A stretch of 64,000 nucleotides of DNA from Flavobacteriales bacterium (GTDB lineage Bacteria; Bacteroidota; Bacteroidia; Flavobacteriales_D; Sanyastnellaceae). The notes below the pieces were generated by a model. It was given only the letters and a program-made list of their open reading frames with translations. It did not search any database and was not told the DNA's origin. This document shows, piece after piece, positions 10,015 through 43,480 of this stretch. The position numbers and the translations under genes were made by a program. Positions within the stretch are counted from its first letter, which is position 1. Each line of letters begins with the position of its first letter. The DNA lies in NCBI GenBank assembly GCA_049610985.1, contig JBMZAB010000005.1:12587-76586 (forward strand). The letters run 5' to 3'.

Positions 10015-10082
10015 GACGTCCTAGGGTTTGTTGGGCAGAGCTGTCAACATGGTTGGCCAAAAGCCGCCAAGAATTGCAACAA
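9989..10082. repeat. 94-nt perfect direct repeat, copy A (last 12 codons + stop + hairpin of the 10044-11216 gene)
   Basis: Hand alignment gives 9989-10082 identical to 26951-27044, with a constant offset of 16,962 nt. Confidence 0.9.
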
Positions 10083-11216
10083 GTCTCCGGTCGACACCGA
10101 CCCATCCCCGTCCAAATCTGCAGGGCACAGGTCTTCTGCGGCCTCTGCAATGCATTGGTTCAATTCCGCATTCCATGTGGTCCCGGCACCGCAATACAAC
10201 GAAGGGTCCACGACTTCTTCGTCTGCGTCACAAATTCCATTGTCGTTGTCGTCCGATTGGCAGCTTCCTCCACAAATGCCCAAAGCATCTGCTTGGTTGC
10301 CTTCGCAATCGCAATCTCCTTCAGGAATGTCGCTGCATCCGCATTCGTACACCTCTCCCGGACCGTTGCAGATGCCGCACGCATCCAAGGCACCCACACA
10401 CGGATCCACATCGTCACAAATGCCATCCCCATCTGCATCCTCGCAACCGTCTTCTTCACATGAAATGGCTCCGCCATTGACCGACAACTCGGTGAATTCA
10501 ATCAACCCACTGGAAAATTGAAATTTGACCGACCGAGCGAAGGAGACGGCGCTGACAGTCACGTCGTTGAGTCCCAAAGACAGCGGCATCGCATTGCCAT
10601 TGTTCCAATTCCCGTTGGCCACGGTCTTCACCACACGGTAGTTCGCCCCTTCAGCGGGCAAAGCTGTAACAAAAATGCTCATGGATTGGGCGTCGGCGCT
10701 GTTTGGATCGTCAGGCGTGGTGGCAGTCACCACGTGTGGCCATGTGGCATTGGGCCCTGCATCCACCCCCGCGCAAGTCTCCATCGCGACACCATCCAAA
10801 TCGTTGGCACAAGACAGGGCGTCTCCATTGAGCGAAAGCTCAGTAAACTCCACCAGGCCGCTGTCGAATTGAAATTTGACAGACCGGGCGAAAGACACCG
10901 CACTGACCGTCACAGAGTTGACACCCAACACCAAGGGCACGGCGTTGCCATTGTTCCAGTTCCCATTGGCCACCGTCTTGACCACGCGGTAGTTCGCCCC
11001 TTCTGCGGGGAGAGAGGTGATAAAAATTTCCAGGCTTTGGGCACCGGAACTGTTCGGGTCGTCAGGTGTGGTGGCCGTCAGCACATGCGACCATGTGGAA
11101 TTGGGGCCTTCGTCGAACAAATCACACGATTCAATTGCGTTTTGGCCCCAGGCAAAAGAAGAAGCGAGGAGCAAAAAGAGCGCGAGGGTTGGAGAGGGGA
11201 TTTTCATGACACTCAA
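10044..11216 (-). CDS. secreted protein: two tandem about 106-aa unknown domains + Cys-rich TSP3-like region + dockerin-like C-terminal tail
   Basis: Signal peptide MSVMKIPSPTLALFLLLASSFAWGQ. Duplicated module ...GPN(S/A)TW.HV.TATTPDDPNS...ANYRVVKTVANGNWNNGNA...FARSVKFQF.SGL.EFTELS.NG. Also [14 protein letters not shown] and [21 protein letters not shown]. The tail is CPADLDGDGSVSTGDLLQFLAAFGQPC. Confidence 0.8.
   Translation of the reverse strand: MSVMKIPSPTLALFLLLASSFAWGQNAIESCDLFDEGPNSTWSHVLTATTPDDPNSSGAQSLEIFITSLPAEGANYRVVKTVANGNWNNGNAVPLVLGVNSVTVSAVSFARSVKFQFDSGLVEFTELSLNGDALSCANDLDGVAMETCAGVDAGPNATWPHVVTATTPDDPNSADAQSMSIFVTALPAEGANYRVVKTVANGNWNNGNAMPLSLGLNDVTVSAVSFARSVKFQFSSGLIEFTELSVNGGAISCEEDGCEDADGDGICDDVDPCVGALDACGICNGPGEVYECGCSDIPEGDCDCEGNQADALGICGGSCQSDDNDNGICDADEEVVDPSLYCGAGTTWNAELNQCIAEAAEDLCPADLDGDGSVSTGDLLQFLAAFGQPC
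10458..11126 (-). repeat. in-frame tandem domain duplication (period 351 nt / 117 aa)
   Basis: Residues 31-136 and 148-253 of the 390-aa protein align without gaps. Nucleotide identity is roughly 80% by eye. Confidence 0.85.
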
Positions 11217-11266: not shown

Positions 11267-12889
11267 TCATTTCATGCCCTCTTTTCTCTCTAAGGCTTTG
11301 CGAGGCTCGCTGTACACCCTCTGGATGACCGTGTCTGTCATCAACTTCATGTCCTCAAGGGATTGATCGTCGCCAAACTCCACCTGCAACGCCTTCAGCT
11401 CCGACTTCAACCTCTGCACGAGTGTATCCGGTGCACTGGCATACATGTTGTTCAATTCATACGGATCGTCGTCAAGGTTGTACAATTCCCATTCGTCCAT
11501 GGAGTAGTAAAAGTGCATCAACTTGTAGGGACCCGATTTGATGCCGTAATGCGGTTGCACCTTGTGCCAAATGGGGTATTCGTAGTAATGGTAATAGACC
11601 GCCGTCCGCCCAGGCTCATCATCGTTGTCAAAAGCCGATTTGAAACTTTTCCCCTGCATGGTTGAAGGCACTTCCAACCCCGCCATGTCCAACAGCGTGG
11701 GACCGAAATCGATGTTCATGGCCATGTGGTCAGACACGGTTCCAGGTTCAATCACCCCGGGGCACTGAACCACGAATGGCATTTTGAACGACTCTTCGTA
11801 CATCCATCGTTTGTCGAACCAGCCATGCTCGCCCAGGTAGAAGCCTTGGTCTGAAGTGTACACCACAAGGGTGTTCTCATCGAGGCCAGTTTCTTCCAAA
11901 TGGTCCAACACGCGTCCCACGGCGCGGTCCACACCCGCCACGCAACGCAGATAGTCTTTGATGTACGTCTGGTATTTCCAATGTTTCAAATCCTCTCCCT
12001 GCAATGAATCGTGGGGCGTCCAGAATTGTCCCTTGTCTCCGTAAGCGAGCCAGCGCATGGAATCACGGCGTGTCAACCCAGGCGGCGGCACTTGCTTCAT
12101 GTCCCTGCGGTTCAGGTGCTCCCCAATTTCCATCATGTTTTCCGCTGCCGCAGGGCGTCCTGCATAGTCGTCGTTGAACGACAATGGCGTGGGGAAATCA
12201 AAATCCGCAAACAACTCGTGGTACATCGAATCCGGGCGCCAATCCCTGTGCGGGGCTTTGAACTGGTAAAGCAACATGAATGGCTTGTTGGGATCGCGTT
12301 GCTCTGTCAACCACGCGATGCAATCGTCTTCAATGACCTGTGTGGAGTGCCTGGTGGTTTCCACCAACGTGTCCACCCCATTCACACAAAATTGTGGGTT
12401 GAAGTAAGTGCCTTGACCTCCCCAATTGATGAGCACCTTGGAGTGGTCAAAGCCCTCGGGCGTCGTACCCAAGTGCCACTTGCCGATGACAGCGGTTTCG
12501 TAACCGTTTTGTTGGAACACCTTCGGAAAGGTGAGCAAGTCCCCGTTGAAATCACCTCCATCCACATTTTTGTAGAAGCCATTCACGTGGCTGAATTGAC
12601 CCGTCAGAATCGACGATCGGCTGGGTCCGCAAATGCTGTTGGTGCAGTACACCTGGTCCATTCTTGCCCCGTTCTTGGCAATCCTGTCGATGTTGGGGGT
12701 CGGGGCAAGTTTTGAAATTTCAGAACCGTAGGCACTGATGGCTTGGTAGGCATGGTCGTCCGCCATGATGTAAATGACGTTGAGCGGCTTGTCTTTGTCA
12801 CCGCGTTGAGTAGTGGATTGGCAGGAAAGCATGCTCACGGCCAGCAAACACATCGCGAGGGTTGCGAGGGGGGGCTGAATTCTTGTCAT
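11267..12889 (-). CDS. sulfatase (Cys-type; N-acetylglucosamine-6-sulfatase/arylsulfatase-like, with DUF4976-like C-terminus)
   Basis: NVIYIMADDH..., sulfatase signature C-x-P-x-R in SICGPSRSSILTG, and a C-terminal LYNLDDDPYELNN. The ATG at 12889 gives the lipoprotein-like signal MTRIQPPLATLAMCLLAVSMLSC. The track extension to 13126 would overlap the upstream gene. Confidence 0.9.
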   Translation of the reverse strand: MTRIQPPLATLAMCLLAVSMLSCQSTTQRGDKDKPLNVIYIMADDHAYQAISAYGSEISKLAPTPNIDRIAKNGARMDQVYCTNSICGPSRSSILTGQFSHVNGFYKNVDGGDFNGDLLTFPKVFQQNGYETAVIGKWHLGTTPEGFDHSKVLINWGGQGTYFNPQFCVNGVDTLVETTRHSTQVIEDDCIAWLTEQRDPNKPFMLLYQFKAPHRDWRPDSMYHELFADFDFPTPLSFNDDYAGRPAAAENMMEIGEHLNRRDMKQVPPPGLTRRDSMRWLAYGDKGQFWTPHDSLQGEDLKHWKYQTYIKDYLRCVAGVDRAVGRVLDHLEETGLDENTLVVYTSDQGFYLGEHGWFDKRWMYEESFKMPFVVQCPGVIEPGTVSDHMAMNIDFGPTLLDMAGLEVPSTMQGKSFKSAFDNDDEPGRTAVYYHYYEYPIWHKVQPHYGIKSGPYKLMHFYYSMDEWELYNLDDDPYELNNMYASAPDTLVQRLKSELKALQVEFGDDQSLEDMKLMTDTVIQRVYSEPRKALERKEGMK

Positions 12890-12903
12890 GGAAAGAGAAT
12901 TTG

Positions 12904-14190
12904 TCAATTTTTTCGGGCAGACACGAGGAAGGGCAAATTGGCGGAAGAACATTGGTCCGTGGTGTTGCATGCCCTCACAAAAACACGGTAGGCCTCTGGC
13001 TGTTGAGGGGCGGTGAACTCGACGACTGAGCCTCGGGACACCTCGAAAGAGGCCGGGACTTCCTTCAGACTCGCTTGGCGGTCTCCGCCTGTTTTGGTCG
13101 AGGTCGACTCTGGGAACAAGGCGCACGTCCAGCGCACCTCGGCCCCGTGGCCCTCAACCTCCACCTCCAATTGCAGGAGCTCTCCAGGCTGAACCACATG
13201 GTCCTTCCGCCACCCCTGGCCTTTCAATTTCAGGTCCACAATGCCGGGCGACCGGGTCGCGGGCCATTCTCCTGTCCAGGCGCGGTGCATGGCATCCACA
13301 CCGTCGGTCGGCCGGCCATCGCTCAAAAAGAGTCCATGCCAGGTTGCTGTGGACTCTTGTTTTTGGCCCCACAAAAAACAATAGCTCCCCAAGCAACGTG
13401 CGCTGTCTGAGGCAATGATTTCTTCAAACCGCCTCAAACGGGTGGCTGCTTTGACCCCGCCAGGGGGCTCTTTCTTCGCACCCCATGCTGTCTTGGGTGC
13501 TTCAAATGGGCCGTTGACCCCCCACTCCGTGACGAGGTAGGGCTTGTCCCATCCAAATCGCCGAATGTTCAAGGGCAACTTTTCGATGCTCCCGTAAGCG
13601 TTGACCCCAAGCACATCCACACTGGGGCACTGGGTTCGGACCATGTAGATTTTGGCCGGATCGATGCCGGCGAGCACCGTGGAAGTGGGATGATCGGGAT
13701 CCACCTGGTGAATAAATTCGGCCAAGGCCTCCACGGAATCCCAAACCCGGGTGTTGGTGTATTGTAAGTCCACTTCATTTCCGATTCCCCAAAGGAGCAG
13801 CGCCGGGTGGTCCTTGTATTTCAGAACTTCTTGCTTGAGCTCGGCCAATTGACCTTCCACAGCGTGCACGTCGTTGTAATCCATGCCCGTGCGCTCAGGC
13901 CTTAAATACAAACCCAGCATGACCGACATCCCGCGGGCATGCGCAGAATCCAACAAGGCCGATTTGTTCGTGCTCCAAAGCCGGATGGAATTGGCTCCCG
14001 ACGATTGAAGCAACTCGAAGTTGGCTTTGGCTCCGGCGCCCAGTACAGGGTGGGTTTCGCCGTGACGCAACAAGGTCCATCCGGAGGAATCTTTCGAAAT
14101 CGTCACTTCAGGAACCTGCGCCCTTCCCACCGTCGAGGCGGTAAAGCACCACCACGCCAAAATCACGTATGCCGTCTTCTTCTGCCTCAT
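12904..14190 (-). CDS. clan GH-A glycoside hydrolase (TIM barrel + C-terminal beta-sandwich; GH2/GH158-like)
   Basis: Signal MRQKKTAYVILAWWCFTASTVGRAQ. Acid/base context LLLWGIGNEVD and nucleophile context PYLVTEWG. The start at 14190 forms an ATGA overlap with the upstream stop; an alternative start is at 14211. Confidence 0.75.
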   Translation of the reverse strand: MRQKKTAYVILAWWCFTASTVGRAQVPEVTISKDSSGWTLLRHGETHPVLGAGAKANFELLQSSGANSIRLWSTNKSALLDSAHARGMSVMLGLYLRPERTGMDYNDVHAVEGQLAELKQEVLKYKDHPALLLWGIGNEVDLQYTNTRVWDSVEALAEFIHQVDPDHPTSTVLAGIDPAKIYMVRTQCPSVDVLGVNAYGSIEKLPLNIRRFGWDKPYLVTEWGVNGPFEAPKTAWGAKKEPPGGVKAATRLRRFEEIIASDSARCLGSYCFLWGQKQESTATWHGLFLSDGRPTDGVDAMHRAWTGEWPATRSPGIVDLKLKGQGWRKDHVVQPGELLQLEVEVEGHGAEVRWTCALFPESTSTKTGGDRQASLKEVPASFEVSRGSVVEFTAPQQPEAYRVFVRACNTTDQCSSANLPFLVSARKN

Positions 14191-15380
14191 GGTTGTCGAC
14201 GTTGAAGCCAACGTTCCACCTTGTCCGGATGACCGCGATACGCTTCCCAGGCGAAGTCGTGAAGGGTGATGTCGGTGTCATCAGGCAGGATCACACGCAC
14301 CTCCCTGGTGCCCGCCCAATTGAATTCGTCATGCCGAGGCATGCTTTTGATGGGAAGCGCACAGGACCAAATGCCCTCCTCCAATTGCACACAATGTTGG
14401 GGGGTGAGCGTCGATTGAATCTGCCGCGGCTTGCCTGTGCCCGACCAGATGGACATGCCAAGAGGCACCCATCCCCCCTCCAAGCGAAATGTCAAAGCTG
14501 AGTGGGAATGCACCTCCGTCATGTCCAACATTTCCCATCCGTTCAGTGCCACGCCGAAGGCATTCCATTCCTTGTTCGTTCCGCCTTTGTCGTGCTTCAA
14601 CACCAAAAAGGAATTTCCTCGAGATTCCGACCAAAAGACCGAGGAGGACGACGCATTTTCTTGAATGCCCCACCACAATTTGGAACGGCCCAAGTCCAGC
14701 GGAAGAGCCCCGCACACGTCTTGAGACCTGGAGGACAGCTTCTCCCCTTGATGCTCGAATGGCACAATTCGAAGGCCGTCAAGATGTACGCACCCTTCGC
14801 GCTGAAACTCGATGCGCAGCTCTTTGATGTTTTCCAAATTCACCCCCCTCGATGCCGCACGAAACGCGGACAATGGAATGTGCGCCTTTCTCCATTGGTC
14901 GTCGAAGGTTTGCCCCTCCACGTCGAGCAAATTGATCTTGGAAGTGGCTTGTCGGCCTGCGTAATCGATCAAGGCGAAAAACATCGGGATTTTGGAAGCC
15001 GTGCCCCGTTCAAGTTTGATGTGACATTGAATGGCTGCAATCTTCTCCAAGGGCTTCAAGTTTTTGCCCATGTAATTGGCCCATGGGAACCCCACCCCCA
15101 GGTACCGACAGCTGTCCGTTTGAGACCACTCCACCCGCACGTGATCGGCCCCTTCTGCAGACCCTTCTCGGACGACATCCACCCGTTTGCAAGGATGGGA
15201 TTTGTGGCCAAACATGAGGGAGTTGGCTTCGTCCAAATAAATGTCCCTGTGGACGTAGTTTAACACCCGCTCTTCCGCCGTCGGACGCAAGTCCAAGTCG
15301 TACAATGGCATGTCTTGCATGGTGCCACATCCCAGCAGCAATCCGGCAACCAACCCCAAAGTCAACCGCATTCGCATCAT
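14187..15380 (-). CDS. lipoprotein with two CBM-like beta-sandwich regions (putative surface glycan-binding protein)
   Basis: Lipobox MMRMRLTLGLVAGLLLGC. Two segments resemble non-catalytic carbohydrate-binding modules (e.g. ...NIKELRIEFQREGCVHLDGLRIVPF). This rests on compositional and pattern inference only. Confidence 0.65.
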   Translation of the reverse strand: MMRMRLTLGLVAGLLLGCGTMQDMPLYDLDLRPTAEERVLNYVHRDIYLDEANSLMFGHKSHPCKRVDVVREGSAEGADHVRVEWSQTDSCRYLGVGFPWANYMGKNLKPLEKIAAIQCHIKLERGTASKIPMFFALIDYAGRQATSKINLLDVEGQTFDDQWRKAHIPLSAFRAASRGVNLENIKELRIEFQREGCVHLDGLRIVPFEHQGEKLSSRSQDVCGALPLDLGRSKLWWGIQENASSSSVFWSESRGNSFLVLKHDKGGTNKEWNAFGVALNGWEMLDMTEVHSHSALTFRLEGGWVPLGMSIWSGTGKPRQIQSTLTPQHCVQLEEGIWSCALPIKSMPRHDEFNWAGTREVRVILPDDTDITLHDFAWEAYRGHPDKVERWLQRRQP

Positions 15381-16411
15381 TCTTGCTCCAAAAGTGGGGC
15401 ACCTTCCGTGAACATGACGTAGTCCAAGTCGGCACGGGCTTCAATGTCTCCGTTCTCAGGACAATTTCCGCTGTTGAAGGGACAAGCCTGCAGTCCGAGA
15501 CGGATGCCTCGGATTTGGCTCGGTTCACGAACGTTGTTGCCCCCTTCACTTTTCACCTCGAACTCCGAATACGACACGGACACATACCGCCAACCCTCCC
15601 AATCCACCGGCCGAACTTGATGCTTGTACACTTCCATGCCCGTTGCAAAAATGTCCGCAGCATTGTTGGAGGTGTTGTCGTTGAATGGGGCGTCAGACTC
15701 AGAAAGCAAGATGTTGACGTATTGATCGGACGCAAATTCCCCGTTCAGCCCGCCAAGCACACCCAGATTCAGGAAGAACCCTTCGGCATCGGTCGTCACG
15801 GAGGTCAAATCAAGCGGAATGTCGATGTATCCGAGGCTCCAGTCCCAATTCACCCGTCCCCCCATTTTAAAGTACTGTCCCCCTTGGAGCGCTTCATCTT
15901 GGGCGAGGTCGAACGTCATGTTTCCACCGTCTTGGTGCCACACCAACGCCCCATTTGGCAATCCGTCGTCAAAATCCGCCACAGGCAACCCTTCGTACAC
16001 CTTTTCGCCTTGAATCACCAAGTCTTGCTGGAACACCTCAGGCTCCCCTTCCACTGTCAACTCAACCTCGCAGGATTCGACCAAGAAAAAGGGAACGTCA
16101 TCGCAGTTGCCGTGCCACACCACCTGTTCAGGCAGGAGTTCCCTTGAAAATCCAGACAAGGTTTTCACACTCCCTGATTCCGTCCCCACAACGCGGACTG
16201 TCCATTCGACGGGCTTGGAGAATTCGCACGCAAATCCAACAACGTCGCCCACCGAAAAGTCTGGGGTGTGGGTTGTCAGACTCAGTGAGTCCAGCACCTC
16301 AAACTGGCCAAACAGCTCGTCAAGGGATGGCCCCTCAGAATCCGGCCTGTCACACCCGATTGCCAAGAGACACATCAAGACTGAAGCCCACCACATTCTT
16401 GTCTTTCTCAT
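15377..16411 (-). CDS. lipoprotein, Ig-like + CBM-like region (putative surface glycan-binding protein)
   Basis: Lipobox MRKTRMWWASVLMCLLAIGC. 344 aa. ATGA overlaps with both neighbouring genes. Confidence 0.65.
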   Translation of the reverse strand: MRKTRMWWASVLMCLLAIGCDRPDSEGPSLDELFGQFEVLDSLSLTTHTPDFSVGDVVGFACEFSKPVEWTVRVVGTESGSVKTLSGFSRELLPEQVVWHGNCDDVPFFLVESCEVELTVEGEPEVFQQDLVIQGEKVYEGLPVADFDDGLPNGALVWHQDGGNMTFDLAQDEALQGGQYFKMGGRVNWDWSLGYIDIPLDLTSVTTDAEGFFLNLGVLGGLNGEFASDQYVNILLSESDAPFNDNTSNNAADIFATGMEVYKHQVRPVDWEGWRYVSVSYSEFEVKSEGGNNVREPSQIRGIRLGLQACPFNSGNCPENGDIEARADLDYVMFTEGAPLLEQE

Positions 16412-18129
16412 AGTCTTGCAGATATCACGATGAACACTTGATTTGCCCTCACCTCATCCCCCTCTCCTGTCTTTCCTTGTCCCCAGGCGTTCCATTGGAC
16501 ACAGGCAGAGATGTCCTTGGCCAGGATGTGCTTGATTCCCAAGGACGCCATCCAAGCTTGGGTGTCCAACTCCACCCGTTCAAAGTTGTACAAGGTTCCA
16601 AAACCGTCTCGAAGCGCCAAGTATTCGTGGCCCTGCCCTACCGCATGACGCCCTGACCCCTCCAACCATGTGCCAGGCCACACTTCAAATCCGGCCGACA
16701 TCGTCAGGTTGGACGTCAGCAATTCAATGGCCTCCAACGCACTTCCTCCACGTTGGGTTTGTTGAAGCCTTTCAAACACAGACACTCGCCAAGGGTGAGA
16801 CGTCGTGGTGGACGTCCATTCTGCCCCCAACCCCAACGCCTTGAATGTTCGGAGTTGCGTTGTGCCTTGACCGGTCAACTCCGAGTGCATCCCCAGATCC
16901 AACTTCATGGCCAATGCATTCTGCTGTTTCTCCACCGCCAATTCGCCCCCACGTCGGTTGGGGGTCGCATGGCCAAAGGGCAAAATGTTGTCGAACAACG
17001 GGGCCACCGCCATCAACGTGGGGGACAAACTTTGGTTGGCACGAGTCACGTCTGTCAGAAGGTCAAAAAGCGATGCTGATCGAGTCGTCGACCCTGCATC
17101 CACGGTGGGAAATACAGCGGGCTCGGGGAGCTCCGCGAAGTTGTAACGCTTGGATTGCGACCCTGCACTTCTGAAAAAAGGATCCACTTCCCGGTATGAA
17201 GCATGCAGGGTCCAGGAAGAGTCTTGGCTTGTCACATCCAGATTCAAGCCGGCGAACCCACCGCGCACAGAAAAGGCCACGCTGTCCAAATCTGGCGCGT
17301 TCACATCGCGTATCCTCCAGCCCCTTCGTGAGGCTCCAGCTTCCGCGGTCCACCTCATGTGGAGTCCAGGTGTTGACCCTTTCTTGTGGATCAGACCGTG
17401 CACCACTGGGTTCAACACGTTGTGTTTTGCGGTGCCTGATTGGGGGAGGTCGGCCATCACCGAGTGGTGGAATTCGCCTGACCATCCGTCCTGTCCAGTG
17501 ACTGCGGATGTCACGCCGGCCAACACGCGATCAGGCACGTAAGATGTTTCAGAGAGCTGTCTTGACCCTCGCGGCCGTGTGGCGTAACCGTCCAACACGA
17601 GACGCTCCACCCAGCGATCTCCCAAGAACACGGCGTTGGCATGTGCACCTTGCAACCGCCAGCGGTTGTCCTCAAAAAAATTCTCGTAAGCCACCAGGTT
17701 CTTTTGGGCCTCAAACGCCTTGCCCCACGGATCGAAAACTTCTCCGTCGTCGGCATGCAACGTGAATCGGGACTGGTTCAAGTAGATGTCACCCACATTG
17801 AACCTCACCTTGCCACCCAACACCCCAGAAACGCGCAATTGCCTGACGTCGACTTGGGTGCCTTGACCGAAAAACCCTCCAAATTCATTCAGGACCCTGA
17901 CCTGGGCGAACACCTCCACGTTGGGGGTGGGATTGACGTGGGGGTTCAAATCAAGCAGATTCCATCCAGCCGTCACCGAAGGCTCAGGCTGGTTCACCAG
18001 GGTGTTCGAAGTGAACCAGGTTCTGGCGAACCCATCCAGCCAATACTGGGGCTCTCCACCCTCCTCACCCTGTCCCCAGGCCACATTCCCGAGGCACAAC
18101 AAGAGGATGGCAGACAATTGATGTTTCAT
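16408..18129 (-). CDS. predicted outer-membrane beta-barrel protein (unknown family)
   Basis: Sec signal MKHQLSAILLLCLGNVAWGQ. 573 aa of alternating amphipathic short strands rich in G/N/T/S/aromatics. Shares the motif ..QSR[LF]T[VL].. in register with the upstream barrel gene. Confidence 0.6.
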   Translation of the reverse strand: MKHQLSAILLLCLGNVAWGQGEEGGEPQYWLDGFARTWFTSNTLVNQPEPSVTAGWNLLDLNPHVNPTPNVEVFAQVRVLNEFGGFFGQGTQVDVRQLRVSGVLGGKVRFNVGDIYLNQSRFTLHADDGEVFDPWGKAFEAQKNLVAYENFFEDNRWRLQGAHANAVFLGDRWVERLVLDGYATRPRGSRQLSETSYVPDRVLAGVTSAVTGQDGWSGEFHHSVMADLPQSGTAKHNVLNPVVHGLIHKKGSTPGLHMRWTAEAGASRRGWRIRDVNAPDLDSVAFSVRGGFAGLNLDVTSQDSSWTLHASYREVDPFFRSAGSQSKRYNFAELPEPAVFPTVDAGSTTRSASLFDLLTDVTRANQSLSPTLMAVAPLFDNILPFGHATPNRRGGELAVEKQQNALAMKLDLGMHSELTGQGTTQLRTFKALGLGAEWTSTTTSHPWRVSVFERLQQTQRGGSALEAIELLTSNLTMSAGFEVWPGTWLEGSGRHAVGQGHEYLALRDGFGTLYNFERVELDTQAWMASLGIKHILAKDISACVQWNAWGQGKTGEGDEVRANQVFIVISARL

Positions 18130-18130
18130 G

Positions 18131-20071
18131 TCAAAAAGTCAATTTCAATTCCACCATGGTTTCCGATCCTGCCAAGGCATTGAGTGAAAAATTAGGATCT
18201 CGGAAGGTATACCACTGATGCCGCACGTAAAGGTTGACGCCGTCACTCAGGGATAGATCCATCCCTGCTCCGAGCCTGCTCTGCGTTTGGTTGCGGGCAG
18301 AAGTCATGACTTCATGACGGCCACCACTGAGCCAACTCGTCCATGGATTGGCCACACTCGGAACGTCCGCATCCCCTGCCGCTGTCTCTCCGTTGCCCAC
18401 CACACGTTCGAACCCGAGGTGAATCAACCCCACACAACGCGGACTGAATTCCACACCCAAATCCAGTTGGCTGCTTTGCTGACGGAGCAACGACGCCGTG
18501 GGCCCATCAAATCCATCCCACCAACCGCGCTGAGCCGTGTTCATGCGATGAAGCCATGTCGCCATCCAGTCACGGCCTTTAAAGGTTCCTTTTCTTTTGA
18601 CTTGGACTTCCAAGGTGTTGAATCGCTTTTTGAATGCGGTGGCCTCGGTCGCGAGCGAATCAGACAATGACACCACTTCGAAAGTCCGGCGATACACGCT
18701 GTTTAGCGCATTGTAAGGCCCCCACGATTGGGAGAACAAGTTCAACCTGGACAGCGTCTCGCCGTTGACAATGTGGAAATACGAAACCCCACCAGACGTC
18801 GGCGTCAACTCCGAGGCCAGACCCATGCCCGTGTTGATTTGCCATGCTCCCACTGCCCCTTGCATTTGCACTTCCAAGCCTTGCCTGTTGTTCACCGGAG
18901 TGCCCAGCTGCACCATGGGCGATTCAAAAGGCGCGCGAACCGTGGCTCCTATCCCAGCCACATTGGGAAACACTTCCAGGACAGATGAATTCAAAAAATT
19001 TCCTGTGACGTTCACGAATTCCGGGGCAATTCTGTACGCCCGCAGCGACAATGGCACCTTGGCCTGGGATGTCGGGCGGATGTCCAGGAACACAGCCTCG
19101 CCTTGCTGCCATTCCATGTCCATGTCTTCTCTGTACTTTCCCCAACCACCTTCAAGCAAGACCACATGCTCCTTCCAAACCGCCTTTGTCTCTAGGGTGT
19201 GAAGGTGGTACACCCTGGCGTCCCCGTTCAACGTGTCGATGACGGCCTGAGACGTGAGGGTGTTGTACGCCAGGTTCATCTTCGACCCCAAAGACTTGGA
19301 CACGCGCCAACTTGACGCGAAGTTGGGCACACCGGATGCGATTGCACGGTTGAAGTTGCTCTTCCCCAAAACGCCTTTGACCTCAAGTTGACCAGGCAGG
19401 TCCTTCATCCCTAAAAAAATGCCTTGAAACGCACGGCTGCCGTAACGCAAACCCATGTCCACCAGGCCTTGCTCCACGTAACGGTTGTAACGCGCCCACG
19501 GCCTCCGTTCCACGGAGGTTTGCGGCCTTCGGTCGAACAAGCTCAGCCGGTTGAACGATTGGTTACCCCACACCGTCAATCGACTCTGACGGTACCACGT
19601 GACGCCCCCGGTTCGAAGCGTCACCTTGCCCCAGTTTCTTCGGATGTTCATTGAGGTGTTCAACCCGAGGTCCAACGTCAATGCGGAAGGGTCCACCTCT
19701 GGCCCTTTGAACAGCGAATTGCCCATGAAATCCACCCCAATCCTCACCCCTTCTTTCGTGGTGATCTTCAGGCGGGTCAAAAACATGGGCTCTCGATAGA
19801 GGTCGCCCACCAAAACCGCCATGGTCTTTCCGGAATTCCCTGGAAACACTTCATTTTGGTTTCTCACATACCCCAACACGCGACAGAACCCTGACGCCGA
19901 CACCCCATGCGCAGGCTGCCGAATGGACGGAGCGGAACTGCTCGTCCAACTTTGTGAATCCAACCCTTGGGCCAACATGGGGGCTGGCAAAAACAAGAGG
20001 GCAGTCCACAACGCGACCCTCAACGGGAGGCCTTCAAAATGAAAACAAGGATGGCGCAGGAGAGGAGACAC
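18131..20071 (-). CDS. predicted outer-membrane beta-barrel protein (unknown family)
   Basis: GTG start. Signal ...LRVALWTALLFLPAPMLAQG. 646 aa ending ...ETMVELKLTF, the terminal aromatic typical of BAM substrates. Confidence 0.6.
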   Translation of the reverse strand: MSPLLRHPCFHFEGLPLRVALWTALLFLPAPMLAQGLDSQSWTSSSAPSIRQPAHGVSASGFCRVLGYVRNQNEVFPGNSGKTMAVLVGDLYREPMFLTRLKITTKEGVRIGVDFMGNSLFKGPEVDPSALTLDLGLNTSMNIRRNWGKVTLRTGGVTWYRQSRLTVWGNQSFNRLSLFDRRPQTSVERRPWARYNRYVEQGLVDMGLRYGSRAFQGIFLGMKDLPGQLEVKGVLGKSNFNRAIASGVPNFASSWRVSKSLGSKMNLAYNTLTSQAVIDTLNGDARVYHLHTLETKAVWKEHVVLLEGGWGKYREDMDMEWQQGEAVFLDIRPTSQAKVPLSLRAYRIAPEFVNVTGNFLNSSVLEVFPNVAGIGATVRAPFESPMVQLGTPVNNRQGLEVQMQGAVGAWQINTGMGLASELTPTSGGVSYFHIVNGETLSRLNLFSQSWGPYNALNSVYRRTFEVVSLSDSLATEATAFKKRFNTLEVQVKRKGTFKGRDWMATWLHRMNTAQRGWWDGFDGPTASLLRQQSSQLDLGVEFSPRCVGLIHLGFERVVGNGETAAGDADVPSVANPWTSWLSGGRHEVMTSARNQTQSRLGAGMDLSLSDGVNLYVRHQWYTFRDPNFSLNALAGSETMVELKLTF

Positions 20072-20127
20072 GGCTCAACTTACTCCATATTGTTGAACGA
20101 CTGCGGCATGGGCCCGTCAAGAATGCG

Positions 20128-21153
20128 TCAATTCTGAGGTGCGAGGGGTACGGAATCTCGAACACACCGGAATCCGACATGGCTAGCGCCCGTGTCTTCT
20201 GCCACAGGCATTCGCGCAGTCACCCTGTAACTGGAGCAGTATCCAGGATGGCAGAGGAAAGAACCACCCCTCATGACGCGTTTGGGGACATGGTCTTCCA
20301 TGGGGTCAAACGAAACTCCCGGCCCCCTTGGATTCAAAACAACCTGACCGGAACGACTTGCATAAGTGTAAGGGTCGTACCGATCGCTGCACAATTCCCA
20401 CACGTTGCCTCCCAAGTCGTGGATTCCGAGGCTGTTTGCTGGGTACGACATGACTGGAGCCGTCTTGACGTGGCCATCCAATTTGGCGTTGGAGACTGGA
20501 AATTGCCCTTCCCAGATGTTGCATTTCACCTCACCCTGCCCTGGAGCTTCGTTGCCCCAAGGAAACCTGACTTGTTCCCCACGAGCGGTGGCTGCAAACT
20601 CCCACTCCGCTTCGGTGGGCAAGCGCGCCCCCCTCCATGTCGCATAAGCCACGGCGTCCTCCAACGCGATGTGCACCACAGGATGATCCAACACCTCTTG
20701 ATACGTTGAACCTGGGCCTTCAGGGCATTTCCAGCTGGCCGACTCTGTCCACTTCCACCACTGCCCAGGGTCCCTCAGACTGAAAATCGCCTCAGGAGAA
20801 AAGAACGTCATGGAACCAGGGTCGTGGGAACCTTGCGGGGTGTCAACTGGTCGCTCGGCCACGGTCACGTACCCCGTGCTTTCCACAAATTCTGCGAACT
20901 GGGCGTTGGTCACCTCATGACGGTCCATGTGAAAGCCATCAACCCTCACAAGGTGTCTTGGCTGTTCACGAGGCAACGCATCCGAATCCCCTGAATGCGC
21001 CCCCATTTGGAATGCTCCCCCTTCCACCCAAACCATGGACGCATGACCTGCTGCAGGCTGGGGAGATGCCAGCTTCTTCTCATGATTCTTCGCAGCTGGC
21101 TGACATCCCAAAACAACGACCAGCCCAAGAATGCTCCTCCAAGATGTATTCAT
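20128..21153 (-). CDS. formylglycine-generating enzyme (SUMF1/FGE family)
   Basis: MVWVEGGAFQMGA..., ...VTNAQFAEFV..., ...GGNVWELCSDRY... and ...RVMRGGSFLCHPGYCSSYRVTAR are canonical FGE-sulfatase domain blocks. The start overlaps the upstream stop by 1 nt (TGATG). Confidence 0.9.
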   Translation of the reverse strand: MNTSWRSILGLVVVLGCQPAAKNHEKKLASPQPAAGHASMVWVEGGAFQMGAHSGDSDALPREQPRHLVRVDGFHMDRHEVTNAQFAEFVESTGYVTVAERPVDTPQGSHDPGSMTFFSPEAIFSLRDPGQWWKWTESASWKCPEGPGSTYQEVLDHPVVHIALEDAVAYATWRGARLPTEAEWEFAATARGEQVRFPWGNEAPGQGEVKCNIWEGQFPVSNAKLDGHVKTAPVMSYPANSLGIHDLGGNVWELCSDRYDPYTYASRSGQVVLNPRGPGVSFDPMEDHVPKRVMRGGSFLCHPGYCSSYRVTARMPVAEDTGASHVGFRCVRDSVPLAPQN

Positions 21154-22565
21154 CAGTGCGTGGATTCAAAAGAGCGAAACGGGTCGTTTTTCCAGGTGAT
21201 CCCATCTTGCCACCGAGGCGCTTTCACTTGCTTCAGATAATCGAGCAAGTCCGACTCCATGTCGTGGGCAAGCTCCGGCAACTTGAGCGCGAGGTTTGTC
21301 GTCTCTTCCAAGTCCTTCTCCAAGTCAAACAACCGCACCTCGCCGTTGTCGTGGAACTTCAGCAGTTTGTAATGGCCAGAGATCCAAGCCGAGTGTGCAC
21401 GGTTGAGGGCGATTCGGTTTTGGTATGGCACATGAAAGGCCATGCCCCCATTCGGCCGCACCACATCCTTGGCTTGCACTCCTCGCAGCACGTGGACAAA
21501 ACTACCCCCATCCAAGCTGTCAGGCGCCTCACTCCACCCTCCCGCCAATTCAGCCACGGTGGGCAAGAGGTCCGCTCCCCAGACACAGGCTGACGTCGCC
21601 ACGTTCGCAGCAACACCAGGACCTGACACCACAAACGGCACCCTGAGCCCACCTTCCATGGCGTCCCATTTCCCCCTGCTCAAGGGCTCATTGAGGCTCT
21701 TCTCATAATGCTTGGCCCCAGGAATGTTTGGGACACCCCCGTTGTCGGACAGATAGATCATGTAGGTGTTGTCGTCCAACCCCAATTCATGAACCTTCGC
21801 CAAGAGTAGGCCTAGACTCGCATCCAAGTCCATGGTCATGCCGGCCATTCCTTGGTGACGGTGTCGCCGGCCGGGCTCCGTCCTTCCCACCTTGCCTAAA
21901 GAAGCTGGTGTTGTTTCAATGTTGGTGTGCACCGCATAATGGGAAATCTGTAGGAAAAACGGACGGGCCAAGGCATGACAAGAGTCCACGAATCTCATTG
22001 CACGGTCTGTCAACTCAAAGACACGCTTGGGGTCAGAAACCACCTCGGTCTCCCATTGACTTCTGTCGTTGACGAACCCGCCATCCACATTTTTCGTCGG
22101 TCCGTCGCTGACGTCGTACCCCACCTCCTCAGGGGTGCCACCCATGCCCCATTTTCCAAAATGTGCGGTCTGGTACGTTGAGTCGATGGTCTGAAGGGCC
22201 TTGGGCAAACTCACCCAGTCCCCGTGAGGAATGTGAGAGGTGTTCATCCCCACCCGAATCAACTGGATTCGGGCTGGAGATTTCCCGAATTGAATGCTGT
22301 AACGCGACGGGGCACACACGGGTGCCGACGCCCTCGCGTTGGAGAACCTCATCCCGCTTTGGGCCAACGAATCCAGCCACGGCGTCTGGTGAAAGTCACT
22401 TGCCGATTCTGGCAGCCCAGGAACCATTTCCACCGACGTCCCATTCCACGCCTGGTCGTCCACCAGCACGACGACAAAGTTTGGCGGGGCCTTCTGACAC
22501 GTGCGCTCATCCGAGGCACACGAGGCACAAAAAACCAAGCACAACATCCACACGTGCATCCTCAT
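21153..22565 (-). CDS. sulfatase (Cys-type, arylsulfatase A-like)
   Basis: Signal MRMHVWMLCLVFCASC, then NFVVVLVDDQ... and the C-x-P-x-R signature in APVCAPSRYSIQFG. Confidence 0.9.
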   Translation of the reverse strand: MRMHVWMLCLVFCASCASDERTCQKAPPNFVVVLVDDQAWNGTSVEMVPGLPESASDFHQTPWLDSLAQSGMRFSNARASAPVCAPSRYSIQFGKSPARIQLIRVGMNTSHIPHGDWVSLPKALQTIDSTYQTAHFGKWGMGGTPEEVGYDVSDGPTKNVDGGFVNDRSQWETEVVSDPKRVFELTDRAMRFVDSCHALARPFFLQISHYAVHTNIETTPASLGKVGRTEPGRRHRHQGMAGMTMDLDASLGLLLAKVHELGLDDNTYMIYLSDNGGVPNIPGAKHYEKSLNEPLSRGKWDAMEGGLRVPFVVSGPGVAANVATSACVWGADLLPTVAELAGGWSEAPDSLDGGSFVHVLRGVQAKDVVRPNGGMAFHVPYQNRIALNRAHSAWISGHYKLLKFHDNGEVRLFDLEKDLEETTNLALKLPELAHDMESDLLDYLKQVKAPRWQDGITWKNDPFRSFESTH

Positions 22566-24082
22566 GGCTCTGACGACTCCAGTGATGGGCGTTTCAGAAC
22601 CGGCGCCACGCGGGGCAAGGGCCTTGCCAAGGGGTTCACCAGGCCCACACCCGCCGGCACCACCTTGTGGGAAGAATCCATTTGAACCAACACCTGTTGA
22701 AGAGAGTCCAGAATCGGGCCCATGTCCAGTTGACCCGCCAAGTTGTCCAACTCAGAGGGATCTGCCTGATGGTCGTACAACTCCCATCCCAGCTCGCCTT
22801 CGTTTCCCCATCGAGTGATGCGGTGACGCGCTGTGCGAAGAGAGGATCCCTTCCTCCACTCCGTGTACGCACCCGGTGAAACTTGGTCTTCTGTCTCGCG
22901 GGGCTGCAGCACATTTCTGCCCGGAAGTTGTGCAGGAGGAACCAACCCAGCCCATGCGGCGACCGTGGGATAAAGGTCCACCAGTTCCACAGGTGCGAAT
23001 TCCGCGGCATGAGAATTCAATTCGTCTGGGTTTCTGAGGATGAAGGGCACCCTCGTTGCCTCTTCAAACAACGTTTGCTTCTGCCAATGGCCATGTTCTC
23101 CGAGGTGATAGCCATGGTCGCTCAAAAACACGACCAGCGTGTTGTCGTCAAGTCCCGTCTCTTTCAGCGCCCCGAGCACCCTGCCCACCTGTGCGTCCAC
23201 AAAGGACACGGACGCGCGATACGCCTGAATCACCATCTGCGCAGTGTCATGCGCCAAGTCCACTTGGACTCGGTTGCCCCGAATGGAGCGCTTGGACGGG
23301 GTGGGCAACGCCGACAAGGTTGAATCGGCGTAATCGGGAACCACCATGTCCCCCTTGGGATGCATGTCAAAAAAGGAAGAAGGCGCGACAAATGGCGTGT
23401 GGGGCCTGAAGAATCCCGCCGCCAAAAAGAAGGGTTGCTCGGTTTGCGCATGCGCACGGAGCTTCTCAATGGTCAACGAAGCCACCATCCCGTCGGTGTG
23501 CTCTTCCTCGTCTCCTTCGGAACTCAACCAACTCAAAGTCCCACCGAACTTTCCTTCGACCAGAGAGTGAATCAAGTGCTCCTCGCGCTTGTCTCGTCCT
23601 GATGGGTTGTACGTTTCATCCCACGACGGATTGTCGTCTTGGCCCGACGTGCCGATTTCTCCAGGGTTGTCGTAATGGAAAAGCTTGCCCACCCGGGTCA
23701 CGTGGTAACCGTGCTGCCGGAACAATTGAGGCAGGGTCACCACCTCGGGCATGGCGTCCCGAAGCATGACGCGATTCTCTCGAACGCCAGACTGAGAAGG
23801 GTAAAGTCCAGTCAGAAAACTTGTGCGAGACGGACCACAGAGCGGGTATTGACAATGGGCTTGGTCGAAGCGGATCCCTTCAGAGGCAAGCGCGTCGATA
23901 TTTGGGGTCGATGCCAAGGAATCTCCATAACATCCCAGCATGCAGTTCAAATCGTCCGCAACCAACAGCAGGACATTCCGTGTGGCATGGAGATGCTCCT
24001 TCTCACTGGGAGCGCATGAAACCATGAATCCCAACGCCACGACCGACAGCAACCTCCACGCCGATTGAGGAGCAAACCTCAC
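22562..24082 (-). CDS. sulfatase (Cys-type, iduronate-2-sulfatase-like)
   Basis: NVLLLVADDLN... and YPLCGPSRTSFLTG. The GTG at 24082 gives the lipoprotein-like signal VRFAPQSAWRLLSVVALGFMVSC, 10 nt after the upstream stop. The track start (24187; ATG at 24184) would overlap the upstream gene by about 90 nt. Confidence 0.85.
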   Translation of the reverse strand: MRFAPQSAWRLLSVVALGFMVSCAPSEKEHLHATRNVLLLVADDLNCMLGCYGDSLASTPNIDALASEGIRFDQAHCQYPLCGPSRTSFLTGLYPSQSGVRENRVMLRDAMPEVVTLPQLFRQHGYHVTRVGKLFHYDNPGEIGTSGQDDNPSWDETYNPSGRDKREEHLIHSLVEGKFGGTLSWLSSEGDEEEHTDGMVASLTIEKLRAHAQTEQPFFLAAGFFRPHTPFVAPSSFFDMHPKGDMVVPDYADSTLSALPTPSKRSIRGNRVQVDLAHDTAQMVIQAYRASVSFVDAQVGRVLGALKETGLDDNTLVVFLSDHGYHLGEHGHWQKQTLFEEATRVPFILRNPDELNSHAAEFAPVELVDLYPTVAAWAGLVPPAQLPGRNVLQPRETEDQVSPGAYTEWRKGSSLRTARHRITRWGNEGELGWELYDHQADPSELDNLAGQLDMGPILDSLQQVLVQMDSSHKVVPAGVGLVNPLARPLPRVAPVLKRPSLESSEP

Positions 24083-24092
24083 AATGCCTGGC

Positions 24093-25046
24093 TCAAGGAC
24101 GATGAACGATGAAGCGATGGACTTGGGTAATTCCTCCCAGGTGCGTCTCCAACAAATACGTGCCTGGCAACCATCCAGAAACATCAATGGCCGTGGAGGT
24201 CGACTGAGAATGTTCAGTCAAGCACACCTTGCCCTGGGCATCCAACACCCGAAATCGGCCAAGGGCTAGGCTGGACGTCACCCACAATTCCATGGATGCA
24301 GGGTTGGGCGCCATGCCGATGGACAAGGAGGACTGAGCGTCTTGCACGTCGTCCACTTCCCCGGCGCAAAGGCAATCGGCTGTGATCATGTCGTTGATTG
24401 TGTCGTCGTTTCCGTCATCGCACGAATCCCCCACCAAGACACACATGCCGTTGTCCACTTCTGCATAGGGCGCGTAGTTGCACGCCTCCGCATTGGTGCA
24501 ACCCACAGAATTGTAAACCACCATTTGTTTCCAGTAGATGGTGTCTCCATTTGCAACTCCCCATGGACCGCGCCAACCAAAGCGCCCCACTGTCCCTTCA
24601 AACGTGCCACTCCCACTGTTGGGGGGGCTTGTCAAATCCAAGGTGTACGTCTGGAATCCCTCCATCTCTGTGTCCACAGGAACATTCCAATGACACATGA
24701 ACGCGTTGGTTTCTGGTGCGTAGGCGAACAGACGCGCGTTGGGGTTGCCCGACGTGGTGGGGTTTCTCAACGTGATTTGAACGCGGTCGTACATGCCGGC
24801 GTCGATGCCCAAGCTTTCATTGACTGTGCCACTGCGCATGACCGGGGTCGTGTTGAATGCCCGCATGGCCATGGCCTCGGGCTGCTCAATGAGGTTGCAA
24901 CCGAGGTTGGACTCACTGGCGGGAACCCACCCTTCCTTGGAGTCTTGCCAATCGTAGACAATCTGCGCCGTGGCGCACGTCGGGGCAATCACAAACGACA
25001 ACAACAAACAGACGATGCAGGAGGAAATGCGCAAGGAGGTGGTCAT
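24093..25046 (-). CDS. T9SS C-terminal-sorting-domain protein with unknown N-terminal domain and one ACNY module
   Basis: Signal MTTSLRISSCIVCLLLSFVIAPTCATAQ and module GCTNAEACNYAPYAEVDNGMC. The last about 75 aa (24096-24320: ...MAPNPASMELWV...LDAQGKV...GTYLLE...) match the Por_Secre_tail pattern. Confidence 0.75.
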   Translation of the reverse strand: MTTSLRISSCIVCLLLSFVIAPTCATAQIVYDWQDSKEGWVPASESNLGCNLIEQPEAMAMRAFNTTPVMRSGTVNESLGIDAGMYDRVQITLRNPTTSGNPNARLFAYAPETNAFMCHWNVPVDTEMEGFQTYTLDLTSPPNSGSGTFEGTVGRFGWRGPWGVANGDTIYWKQMVVYNSVGCTNAEACNYAPYAEVDNGMCVLVGDSCDDGNDDTINDMITADCLCAGEVDDVQDAQSSLSIGMAPNPASMELWVTSSLALGRFRVLDAQGKVCLTEHSQSTSTAIDVSGWLPGTYLLETHLGGITQVHRFIVHRP

Positions 25047-25098
25047 AACTCTTTCAATGGATTGATTCACAGGCAACGTCCCAAGGTACATTAGAAGC

Positions 25099-33200: not shown

Positions 33201-34420
33201 AGTGAAGGATCTTCTGCCCCTGGCACTTCTGCTGCTGGACCAGCAAGTCCAATTGTGGCGAAACTGTCAAACGCCAAATCTGGAAAGAAAGCCAAAAGAC
33301 CAGCACTCAATCCGGATGCATTCCAAGAGCTGTTGAAGGCATCGTTATAAATGCCTTCAGGCGTATTGATTATCAAAGGCTTCTGGTCGTTTCCGAACAC
33401 CGCAGAGATTTTGTCGGTCGCGTCTTCTGCATTCACGTAGAAGCGGTAAGTCGTGCCGAGATCTCCCACGTTGTAAGACTCCACAGTCAACTTGTACCCG
33501 GGGGTGAGCATTTCAGCGGCTGCGGGAACACAAGCGTCCTCGTCGTCGCAAATGCCGTCTCCGTCTGCGTCCAAAATGCAGTTGCCTTCGCAATCACGGG
33601 CAAAAGCAGGCAAGGTTCCCGCACAATCGCACGCACCTTCTGGGATGCCAGGACCATTAGGGACTCCACATTCATCGGCACAACTAGAGTTATCTCCGTT
33701 CGGGACTCCACATTCATCGGCACAGCTAGAGTTATCTCCGTCGCAAACACCACATTCATCGAGTTCGCCGGCGCATGGATCTTCTACCTCATCTCCCACG
33801 AAATTCCAAGTTTGCTGAATTTGATCAGCTCCGTCTCCGAGAGGGAAGATTTGGGCGTTGAGGGTACCAGAAATGTCACCCGCTGTCGTGATTTGTGCAA
33901 TCAACCACCGACCGTCTGTTGGCAGAGCGTTGGCAGCAGTATTCAAAACGTACCAAGACGCCCCTGTGAGGGTGTTGACATTCAATTCGGTGCCGCCGGC
34001 CTGAAAGTAGCCGCTCACTGTAGGAGACAGGGATGCGTCTTGAACCAATGATGGATCTTCAGCACCTGGCACTTCTGCTGCAGGCTGAGAAAGACCGATT
34101 GTGGCATAGCTGTCGTCGGCGAGTTCTGGGAAGAAAGCCAAGAGACCAACACTCAATCCAGATGCGTTCCAAGCGCTGTTGAAGGCATTGTTGTAGATGC
34201 CTGAAGGGGTTGACAGAATCAAGGGATTCTCGTCGTTGCCAAAGATGGCAGACAACTTGTCGGTGGCATCGTTCGCTTCGATGTAGAAACGGTAAACAGT
34301 GCCTTCTTCTGGAAGGACGGCAGCTGATGTCTCAATCGACATGCCATATTGCGCGTTGGCGCCCATGAATGGGGCCAATCCGAGCAGAGCCATGAGGGCG
34401 TAGCAAAGGTTCGTTCGCAT
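27281..34420 (-). CDS. giant mosaic secreted/surface protein (2379 aa)
   Basis: Uninterrupted 7.1-kb ORF with signal [24 protein letters not shown]. Order of parts: unknown domain A x2, Cys/TSP3 modules, F-type lectin, ACNY modules, DSYGDGWNG domain x2, domain A copy 3, ACNY modules, internal dockerin-like loop, BspA LRRs, Fib_succ_major. Confidence 0.9.
27284..27898 (-). other. Fib_succ_major (Fibrobacter succinogenes major paralogous) domain
   Basis: [11 protein letters not shown]...[10 protein letters not shown]...[13 protein letters not shown]...[12 protein letters not shown]...ASWWTSS...GMSVRCIQD follows the family's ordered motifs. Confidence 0.85.
28001..28918 (-). other. BspA-type leucine-rich repeats (DUF285-like), about 10 units
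   Basis: Repeated [15 protein letters not shown] units, preceded by the typical ...[34 protein letters not shown] leader. Confidence 0.85.
28964..29044 (-). other. internal copy of the dockerin-like Cys-framed loop
   Basis: [27 protein letters not shown] (residues 1793-1819). The same motif is strictly C-terminal in three other genes of this window. Confidence 0.8.
32081..32458 (-). other. F-type lectin (fucolectin/FTP, F5/8-type-C-related) domain
   Basis: [16 protein letters not shown]...[37 protein letters not shown]. The R-x-D-x4-R motif is exact (RQDCCHER), with a His 29 residues upstream. Confidence 0.75.
32498..32845 (-). repeat. tandem duplication of a 54-aa Cys/TSP3 module (period 186 nt)
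   Basis: [49 protein letters not shown] occurs twice (32684-32845 and 32498-32659), joined by DCDCDGNQ. Confidence 0.9.
33661..33744 (-). repeat. 42-nt in-frame tandem duplication
   Basis: 33661-33702 and 33703-33744 are identical up to the unit's last few bases, except one a/g at 33683/33725. They encode (N/D)[13 protein letters not shown] twice. Confidence 0.9.
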
Positions 34421-38836: not shown

Positions 38837-38843
38837 CGGAATC

Positions 38844-41213: not shown

Positions 41214-41290
41214 CTTGATTTTCGGGTGCCCAAAATACGCCCGCTTGGTCGAATGACTGAGGTCTGGAAGGATTGTTGCAATTTGCTGAC

Positions 41291-42010: not shown

Positions 42011-42019
42011 CCGTGACGC

Positions 42020-42817: not shown

Positions 42818-42930
42818 GCGTCAAAGGTAGGCGCCGTGTGTGCCTCAGGTTGCACGTTTGGCCGGCGGGACGAACCAATTTTTCATCCGATTGTTGCACC
42901 TTCGAAATTGAAATCCGAAGCCGCTTTCTC

Positions 42931-43472: not shown

Positions 43473-43480
43473 GGGCTCAT

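Follow-up and report, generated by a model that had tools for sequence, protein, structure and literature searches.

The proteins described here are encoded in a 64,000-nucleotide (nt) stretch of DNA from an uncultured marine Flavobacteriales bacterium (assembly GCA_049610985.1, contig JBMZAB010000005.1, positions 12,587 to 76,586 of the forward strand; hereafter the window, in whose own numbering all coordinates are given). Several of them share a 27-residue, Cys-flanked C-terminal tail which, judged by its sequence, is a single-repeat dockerin-like module consisting of one EF-hand-type loop and an exiting helix, and which is a half-size relative of the NCBIfam family NF041540. Instead of being a new kind of module, it adds a single-repeat variant to a large family already on record. 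On balance we favour the view, with moderate confidence, that this tail, which uncultured aquatic Flavobacteriales append to Sec-exported enzymes and adhesins in the place where homologues in other Bacteroidota have the type A C-terminal domain (CTD) of type IX secretion system (T9SS) substrates, docks onto a partner. The retention and assembly of exo-enzymes at the surface of Flavobacteriales are usually credited to T9SS CTDs and surface lipoproteins.

Four tail copies in the window

Four in-frame copies of the consensus C-P-x-D-[LF]-x2-D-G-x-V-x3-D-L-L-x2-[LF]-x6-C were found, three on the minus strand and one on the plus strand, and a six-frame regular-expression scan of the window returned no others. 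Copy 1 (CPADLDGDGSVSTGDLLQFLAAFGQPC, 10047-10127(-), stop codon at 10044-10046) ends the gene here called P1, copy 2 (CPEDLDGDGTVSVFDLLMLLTALPTTC, 26860-26940(+)) ends P2 and copy 4 (CPADLNEDGEVTSVDLLMLLSVYGEPC, 43484-43564(-)) ends P4; in all three the last Cys is the final residue, its codon directly followed by the stop codon. Copy 3 (28964-29044(-)) is internal and lies 560 codons ahead of the stop of a 2379-residue open reading frame (ORF; 27281-34420(-)), the giant gene. A Cys 'knot' with the consensus C-x3-T-x-W-N-A-x2-N-Q-C precedes two of the four tails, directly upstream of copy 1 (CGAGTTWNAELNQC, 10152-10193(-)) and upstream of copy 2 (CAESTFWNANTNQC, 26800-26841(+)); in P1, tail and knot together span 10047-10196. 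The original prediction, made from the letters alone, had three genes ending exactly with the motif, a fourth copy inside the giant gene and the same knot before two of the tails, and both the scan and the coordinates agree with it. Upstream of the window tails there is either a knot or a Cys-framed repeat termed CNYD (described below) and no second loop-helix, so that each tail holds one repeat.

A resemblance of this kind could arise by chance or from composition among the Asp/Gly/Leu-rich ends of unrelated proteins, in favour of which one can cite only that the motif is short and that its database scores, given below, stay under threshold. We consider this extremely improbable. The degenerate DNA pattern C-x2-D-[LF]-x2-DG-x-V-x3-DLL-x2-[LF]-x6-C has 4 matches in the window against 0.00 expected from 100 dinucleotide-preserving shuffles of it, at least 119 genomic loci carry the motif C-terminally, and a profile of the tail matches 23,580 cluster representatives among 1.84 billion (E<=1e-3). 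A chance motif is ruled out by the shuffle test, the genomic scan and the conservation of positions that formed no part of the search pattern.

Relationship to dockerins

Positions 4-15 of the tail form a canonical 12-residue EF-hand/dockerin loop, with D at loop position 1, N/D at 3, D at 5, G at 6, V at 8 and D at 12, and the D-L-L-x2-[LF] exiting helix follows. Against Pfam Dockerin_1 (PF00404; gathering cutoff 22.9 bits), the isolated tails scored 14.0, 17.0, 22.1 and 13.1 bits (17.0 for copy 2, 22.1 for copy 4), and among the whole proteins only P4 matched, at 16.7 bits. Three tails matched NF041540 ('GC-type dockerin domain-anchored protein', dockerin_GC, 67 positions; curated cutoff 29 bits) at 22.7, 15.7 and 19.0 bits, each covering one half of the model (1-30, 1-31 or 34-67; copy 1 covers 34-67 at 22.7 bits). 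Two-repeat tails from the genomic loci scanned align with the same model end to end (1-67), one of them at 40 bits. The EF-hand models PF00036, PF13405 and PF13202 gave 13.5-16.9 bits for the isolated tails, below their cutoffs of ~25.

A PDB search with a 12-sequence tail profile placed dockerins on top (5lxv_B at 5e-6, then 6kg9_A and 2y3n_B), calmodulin EF-hands being weaker; these alignments cover profile positions 7-30 only and leave out the flanking Cys. AlphaFold2 (AF2) modelled the tail as a loop and a 10-residue helix (residues 17-26) with a predicted local distance difference test score (pLDDT) of 87, and the same loop and helix were obtained (pLDDT 84-91) within a 108-residue context of P4 based on a 32-sequence alignment. 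AF2 shows no entering helix and the repeat is single, not a helix-loop-helix pair, which argues against EF-hand membership. The best Foldseek match of the 31-residue tail model is the NagH dockerin (2ozn_B; root-mean-square deviation 0.8 Å over 23 columns, E-value non-significant); the 108-residue CNYD-plus-tail model found no PDB match by Foldseek. The proposal that the core resembles half of a type I dockerin and occurs singly is thus backed by the Dockerin_1 scores, the half-coverage of NF041540, the dockerin-led PDB search and the AF2 loop-helix.

With NF041540 the tail shares a Cys-flanked D-x-[DN]-x-DG-x-V-x3-D-L-L loop-helix that ends in G-x(0-2)-C at the C-terminus of secreted proteins, and the two-repeat tails that align with the model over its full length come from the same Flavobacteriales/Planctomycetota loci. 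It differs in having one repeat instead of two and in scoring 15.7-22.7 bits, below 29, so the NCBI rule would not name the window tails. The 'anchored' function of that family is a name and not a tested result; no paper on the 'GC-type dockerin' family was found, and literature searches linking dockerins with T9SS and Flavobacteriia returned nothing pertinent. Type I dockerins have in common with the tail the 12-residue Ca loop and exiting helix (F-hand), the best PDB sequence and fold matches, and a location at the C-terminus of secreted proteins of carbohydrate-active type, both cellulosomal and non-cellulosomal. In contrast to them, the tail is single-repeat with flanking Cys, scores below threshold, has no cohesin detected nearby and belongs to an aerobic aquatic Bacteroidota lineage that is not a cellulosome producer.

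Distribution and C-terminal position

One genome per GTDB species was scanned with a stop-codon-free DNA pattern, which matched at least 119 stretches. These loci are mostly from uncultured 'Flavobacteriales bacterium' metagenome-assembled genomes (MAGs), Crocinitomicaceae, Cryomorphaceae and Saprospiraceae, and further matches come from MAGs labelled, as deposited, Planctomycetota/Phycisphaerae, Luminiphilus, Comamonadaceae, Deltaproteobacteria and one archaeon. Locus L068, on CALTBR010000003.1 ('uncultured Flavobacteriales bacterium PACB-20200310-m29'), carries a tail gene distinct from the four in the window.

Although the pattern held no stop codon, no more than 6 residues separate the last Cys from the stop in 108 of the 115 instances listed (0 residues in 7, 1 in 71, 2 in 21 and 3-6 in 9). 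The seven exceptions are four Planctomycetota tails followed by a second repeat, two N-terminal copies and one copy followed by a FISUMP-like domain. A strict C-terminal position, which the original prediction had put forward as a check, therefore holds across more than 100 genomes. At positions outside the pattern, the same 115 instances have Pro at position 2 in 50%, N/D at 6 in 90%, F/Y/W at 23 in 94% and G at 24 in 92%. In at least 15 of the 115, the unit comes second in a tandem pair; the rest follow CNYD repeats, knots or other sequence, and family-specific subtypes of the tail occur, e.g. DLLMLLSVYGEPC. In L043 and L088, the motif is near the N-terminus of a short ORF, 66-93 residues from the ORF start, and the ~170 residues that follow include a lamin-tail-like sequence (..TE[IL]HYNP..).

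The best 150 of the 23,580 cluster representatives are mostly two-repeat C-terminal modules of the CPADLNGDGxVDVxDLLxLLxxWGxC type. Dominated as they are by multi-repeat proteins, they were used for family size and Cys patterns and not for C-terminal statistics of the single repeat. A homologue search with knot plus tail returned only 20 short metagenomic fragments. Single-repeat tails accompanied by CNYD repeats were also seen in MAGs labelled Methanobacteriota archaeon SP189, Luminiphilus and 'uncultured Comamonadaceae' (L020 on PBNL01000050.1, L003/L081, L006/L009/L027/L041 and others). Such off-lineage tails reflect either horizontal transfer of secreted-protein modules or mis-binned or mislabelled contigs.

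Alternation with the T9SS C-terminal domain

A neighbouring gene (24093-25184(-)) encodes a protein that ends in a T9SS type A sorting domain (PF18962, 27.3 bits; TIGR04183, 30.6 bits against a cutoff of 23), which shows that this organism has T9SS substrates. None of the four tail proteins matched the T9SS CTD models of Pfam and NCBIfam (PF18962 and TIGR04183), which rules out that the tails are members of this CTD family and is in keeping with the original prediction of CTD-less tail proteins in a T9SS-bearing organism. All four proteins begin with a hydrophobic signal sequence (..AWG, ..CHA, ..ANA and ..GVA) directly followed by Gln (two in the second case), in agreement with the 'Q-rule' of signal peptidase I in Bacteroidota.

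Homologues of the tail proteins carry one C-terminal module or the other. Among the best 120 homologues of P2, a beta-helix protein (PF13229), 36 end in the tail, most of them being 50-92% identical to P2 and 34 having the knot ahead of the tail, and ~70 (50-59% identity) end in a sequence like the T9SS type A CTD. PF18962 was precomputed for ten listed P2 homologues; of ten others that were sampled, seven have a TIGR04183 match at the very C-terminus, which in four cases exceeds the cutoff. In the family of P4 (PF28492), at least 79 of 120 homologues have CNYD repeats and a single tail, down to 34% identity, and P0372, at 35% identity, retains both the tail and the gene order NQR-ApbE-gene-MazG...RibD-FolD. 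Many distant P4 homologues (26-34% identity) carry PF18962, several being named 'T9SS type A sorting domain-containing protein'; the CTD-bearing ones are from MAGs labelled Bacteroidota, Bacteroidia, Rhodothermales and Ignavibacteriae.

Two unrelated enzyme families thus carry either the T9SS CTD or the tail at the same C-terminal place, the tail in nearer homologues and the CTD in more remote ones; the two modules are unrelated in fold and size. The alternation speaks for an extracellular destination and for a function linked to the C-terminus, without showing which one, and it fits an alternative C-terminal anchoring or docking module. Alternatively, the tail may be a non-canonical C-terminal export or sorting signal, which the T9SS or another export or processing machine would recognize as a functional counterpart of the CTD and might remove by cleavage. 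Non-canonical CTDs do occur among T9SS substrates, for instance in ChiA of Flavobacterium johnsoniae, and the tail is strictly C-terminal and holds the CTD position in homologues of two families. We nevertheless regard a sorting signal as unlikely. A 27-residue loop-helix is unlike the ~70-100-residue beta-sandwich of a CTD, the tail is intact where it is internal (in the giant gene and in L073), and its two-repeat relatives are dockerin-like modules. Moreover, the same unit is present in MAGs that are labelled as Planctomycetota, as Gammaproteobacteria (Luminiphilus) and, in one case, as an archaeon, none of which is known to have a T9SS. A sortase- or exosortase-type sorting signal was ruled out, the sequence having neither a transmembrane helix nor a basic tail.

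Cysteine pairing and the case for docking

The Cys pattern was tabulated for the two-repeat modules of the best 150 representatives, C1 being the Cys before repeat 1, C4 the Cys after repeat 2, and linker Cys being counted between them. C1 and C4 are both present in 56 modules with two linker Cys and in 36 with none, and both absent in 13 with two and in 7 with none, the remaining 6 being mixed. The presence of C1 goes with that of C4 (odds ratio 322) and the two linker Cys likewise occur together, neither pair depending on the other (p = 0.8); the sequences are related, and the p-values are indicative only. Helices 1 and 3 of a dockerin are antiparallel, and its N- and C-termini meet. In the simplest reading of the Cys pattern, one bond would join the start of repeat 1 to the end of repeat 2 and another the end of repeat 1 to the start of repeat 2, and these bonds would be, by analogy, the contacts between repeats that are related by symmetry in an antiparallel two-helix dockerin. 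In a single repeat, the two Cys would then, by the same analogy, lie at opposite helix ends, which makes a self-closing C1-C27 bond doubtful; a single tail more likely pairs with a second unit or a Cys-bearing partner. The enclosing intramolecular disulfide of the original prediction is accordingly in doubt, since Cys co-occurrence in the two-repeat relatives indicates bonds between repeats and not within them.

That self-closed loop would make the tail a passive cap, a Ca2+-binding, disulfide-stapled C-terminal plug that acts without a partner to stabilize extracellular proteins in Ca-rich water. The invariance of both flanking Cys, the canonical Ca loop, the failure to find a partner gene and the confident folding of the monomer by AF2 would all suit such a cap. 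Yet a single amphipathic loop-helix has no core for its conserved hydrophobic residues, and the between-repeat pairing indicated for the two-repeat relatives would put the Cys of one repeat at opposite helix ends. In addition, the retention of the tail at 34-35% overall identity and the family-specific subtypes suggest recognition over capping, and we give the passive cap little credence.

In the docking model that we prefer, and for which we infer Ca binding, docking and the disulfide topology alike, the loop would bind Ca2+ after export via D4, N/D6, D8 and D15. The amphipathic helix and the conserved F-G turn would expose a hydrophobic face made up of L5, V11, L16, L17, L20 and F23, and because a lone 27-residue unit cannot bury this face, the tail would dock onto another polypeptide. 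The partner could be a second tail, rebuilding the two-repeat fold locked by two start-to-end disulfides, or a cohesin-like receptor; with either, the protein would become attached to its partner or to the cell surface.

A working half-dockerin has precedent in the group-2 'truncated' dockerins of Ruminococcus flavefaciens, which have one Ca-coordinating loop, are functional and bind the ScaE cohesin (PMC12270676). A single cohesin accommodates two of them, adjacent and in mutual contact, and artificial single-repeat versions of other dockerins can bind too (PMC12270676). The group-2 proteins are stated to be the only known functional natural truncated dockerins (PMC12270676). The window tails likewise have a single Ca loop. 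The group-2 dockerins differ in belonging to another lineage, in lacking a flanking Cys pair and in having a known cohesin partner, ScaE.

A more specific scheme would dispense with a scaffoldin altogether. Two such half-dockerins, on the same or on different secreted proteins, would pair antiparallel in Ca-rich water, restore the two-repeat fold and be locked covalently by two intermolecular start-to-end disulfides; in this lineage the arrangement would have replaced T9SS-CTD attachment. We hold this to be improbable; if true, exo-enzymes and adhesins of marine Flavobacteriales would be coupled pairwise or onto a tail-bearing surface protein, e.g. the giant adhesin.

Several results weigh against docking of the tail onto a partner. 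No tail reaches the 22.9 bits of Dockerin_1 or the 29 bits of NF041540, copy 2 has no NF041540 match at all, and the Foldseek E-value is non-significant for so short a model. No cohesin (PF00963) was detected among the ~45 window ORFs that were scanned or already annotated, as foreseen in the original prediction, which saw no cohesin-like partner in the window. The same prediction had proposed a look for co-occurring partner genes, and an all-against-all BLAST of 1,304 ORFs revealed no conserved neighbour gene across the at least 119 loci; it returned only further Cys-repeat/tail proteins and lineage synteny, the neighbours of tail genes often being tail-bearing themselves. The Cys statistics derive from related, two-repeat sequences and carry over to a single repeat by analogy only. 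Finally, the model does not account for the crossing of the outer membrane by tail proteins that lack a CTD.

The tail proteins and their genomic surroundings

P1 (10044-11207(-), 387 residues) comprises a signal peptide (..SFAWG, then Q), two ~110-residue repeats, Cys-rich modules, the knot and the tail, and has no Pfam matches above cutoff. An identical product is encoded on the ENA metagenome contig ERZ28548087 contig_25190; exact look-ups of ArgRS and the giant protein gave no match. The two internal repeats (..TATTPDDPNS..ANYRVVKTVANGNWNNGNA..SVKFQF..; 10200-11150(-)) are without a family match. Cys-rich blocks, including CG.CNGPG..YECGC.D.PEGDCDC.GNQ, are common to P1 (10200-11150(-)) and the giant protein (32500-33300(-)), and their sequences resemble thrombospondin type 3 (TSP3) Ca-binding repeats.

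P2 (25138-26943(+), 601 residues) is a right-handed beta-helix protein (PF13229, 28.6 bits) in which a signal peptide (..SCHA, then QQ), the beta-helix, the knot and the tail follow one another. Read from the ATG at 25099, the ORF is longer (25099-26943) and shares 86 nt with the beginning of the CTD gene on the other strand; an exact look-up of this long form gave no match. The true start is probably the ATG at 25138 (M14 of the long ORF), because the closest homologues (P0171/P0172) have 601 residues.

The giant protein starts with a signal peptide (..GANA, then Q) and holds an F5/8 type C domain and many CNYD-type Cys repeats ahead of tail copy 3. The 560 residues C-terminal to that copy (27281-28963(-)) comprise DUF285/PARCEL repeats followed by a Fib_succ_major (FISUMP) domain. 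In five relatives, the same tail subtype is C-terminal (0-5 residues before the stop), and no DUF285 gene was found downstream of their tails. The comparison with these relatives suggests that the internal tail arose by a lineage-specific fusion that joined a gene ending in a tail to a DUF285/PARCEL-FISUMP module, or else through a lost stop codon or an assembly artefact.

P4 (43481-45394(-)) has a signal peptide (..EGVA, then Q), three CNYD repeats and the tail, and its homologues are annotated as PF28492 (Beta_helix_4). It is a syntenic orthologue across Flavobacteriales, located between ApbE/NQR and MazG. The order NQR operon - ApbE - Beta_helix_4 tail protein - MazG ... RibD - FolD (36000-52900) is kept in L122-L124, and the tail protein of these genomes is just 35% identical to P4, suggesting a stable resident among housekeeping genes.

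The CNYD repeat is a Cys-framed unit of ~20-30 residues, G-C-T-[YFW]-x2-A-x-N-[YF]-[DN]-x2-A-x3-D-G-S-C, which is found ahead of most tails and accounts for a large part of the giant protein. Apart from the window (43670-43792(-) and 29678-32893(-)), it was seen at many loci, e.g. L004, L010 and L036. No match was found in Pfam, in NCBIfam or, by Foldseek, in the PDB. AF2 models the repeats as tiny hairpins (pLDDT ~85-92), and the CNYD repeat has the appearance of an extracellular mini-domain not described so far.

The four tail genes are scattered across the window and form no operon. The window, with a G+C content of 57.9%, contains housekeeping genes (ArgRS, Ffh, FolD, RibD, the NQR operon, ApbE, RF3 and LigA), a sulfatase/FGE cluster and a TonB-dependent receptor; scanning it for tRNAs and Rfam families gave nothing relevant. 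The sulfatase-rich cluster (11267-24187(-)) encodes four sulfatases, an FGE-sulfatase, a GH2-like TIM-barrel protein and a CBM30-like lipoprotein, as well as two large proteins of 573 and 646 residues without Pfam matches that, from their sequences, look like outer-membrane beta-barrels. The cluster has no SusC/SusD pair and adjoins P2 and the T9SS-CTD protein.

Conclusions

Uncultured Flavobacteriales are major degraders of algal polysaccharides. The tail is a widespread, unannotated 27-residue C-terminal module of the dockerin world that alternates with the T9SS CTD on homologous enzymes, and it suggests that these Flavobacteriales have a second, Ca-dependent principle of attachment or assembly. 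Such tails would greatly enlarge the set of natural single-repeat dockerins, which in the 2025 literature is limited to a few Ruminococcus proteins, and a dedicated hidden Markov model of the tail would annotate hundreds of 'hypothetical' secreted proteins. Very short docking tags that are switchable by Ca and by redox state would also be of interest to protein engineers.

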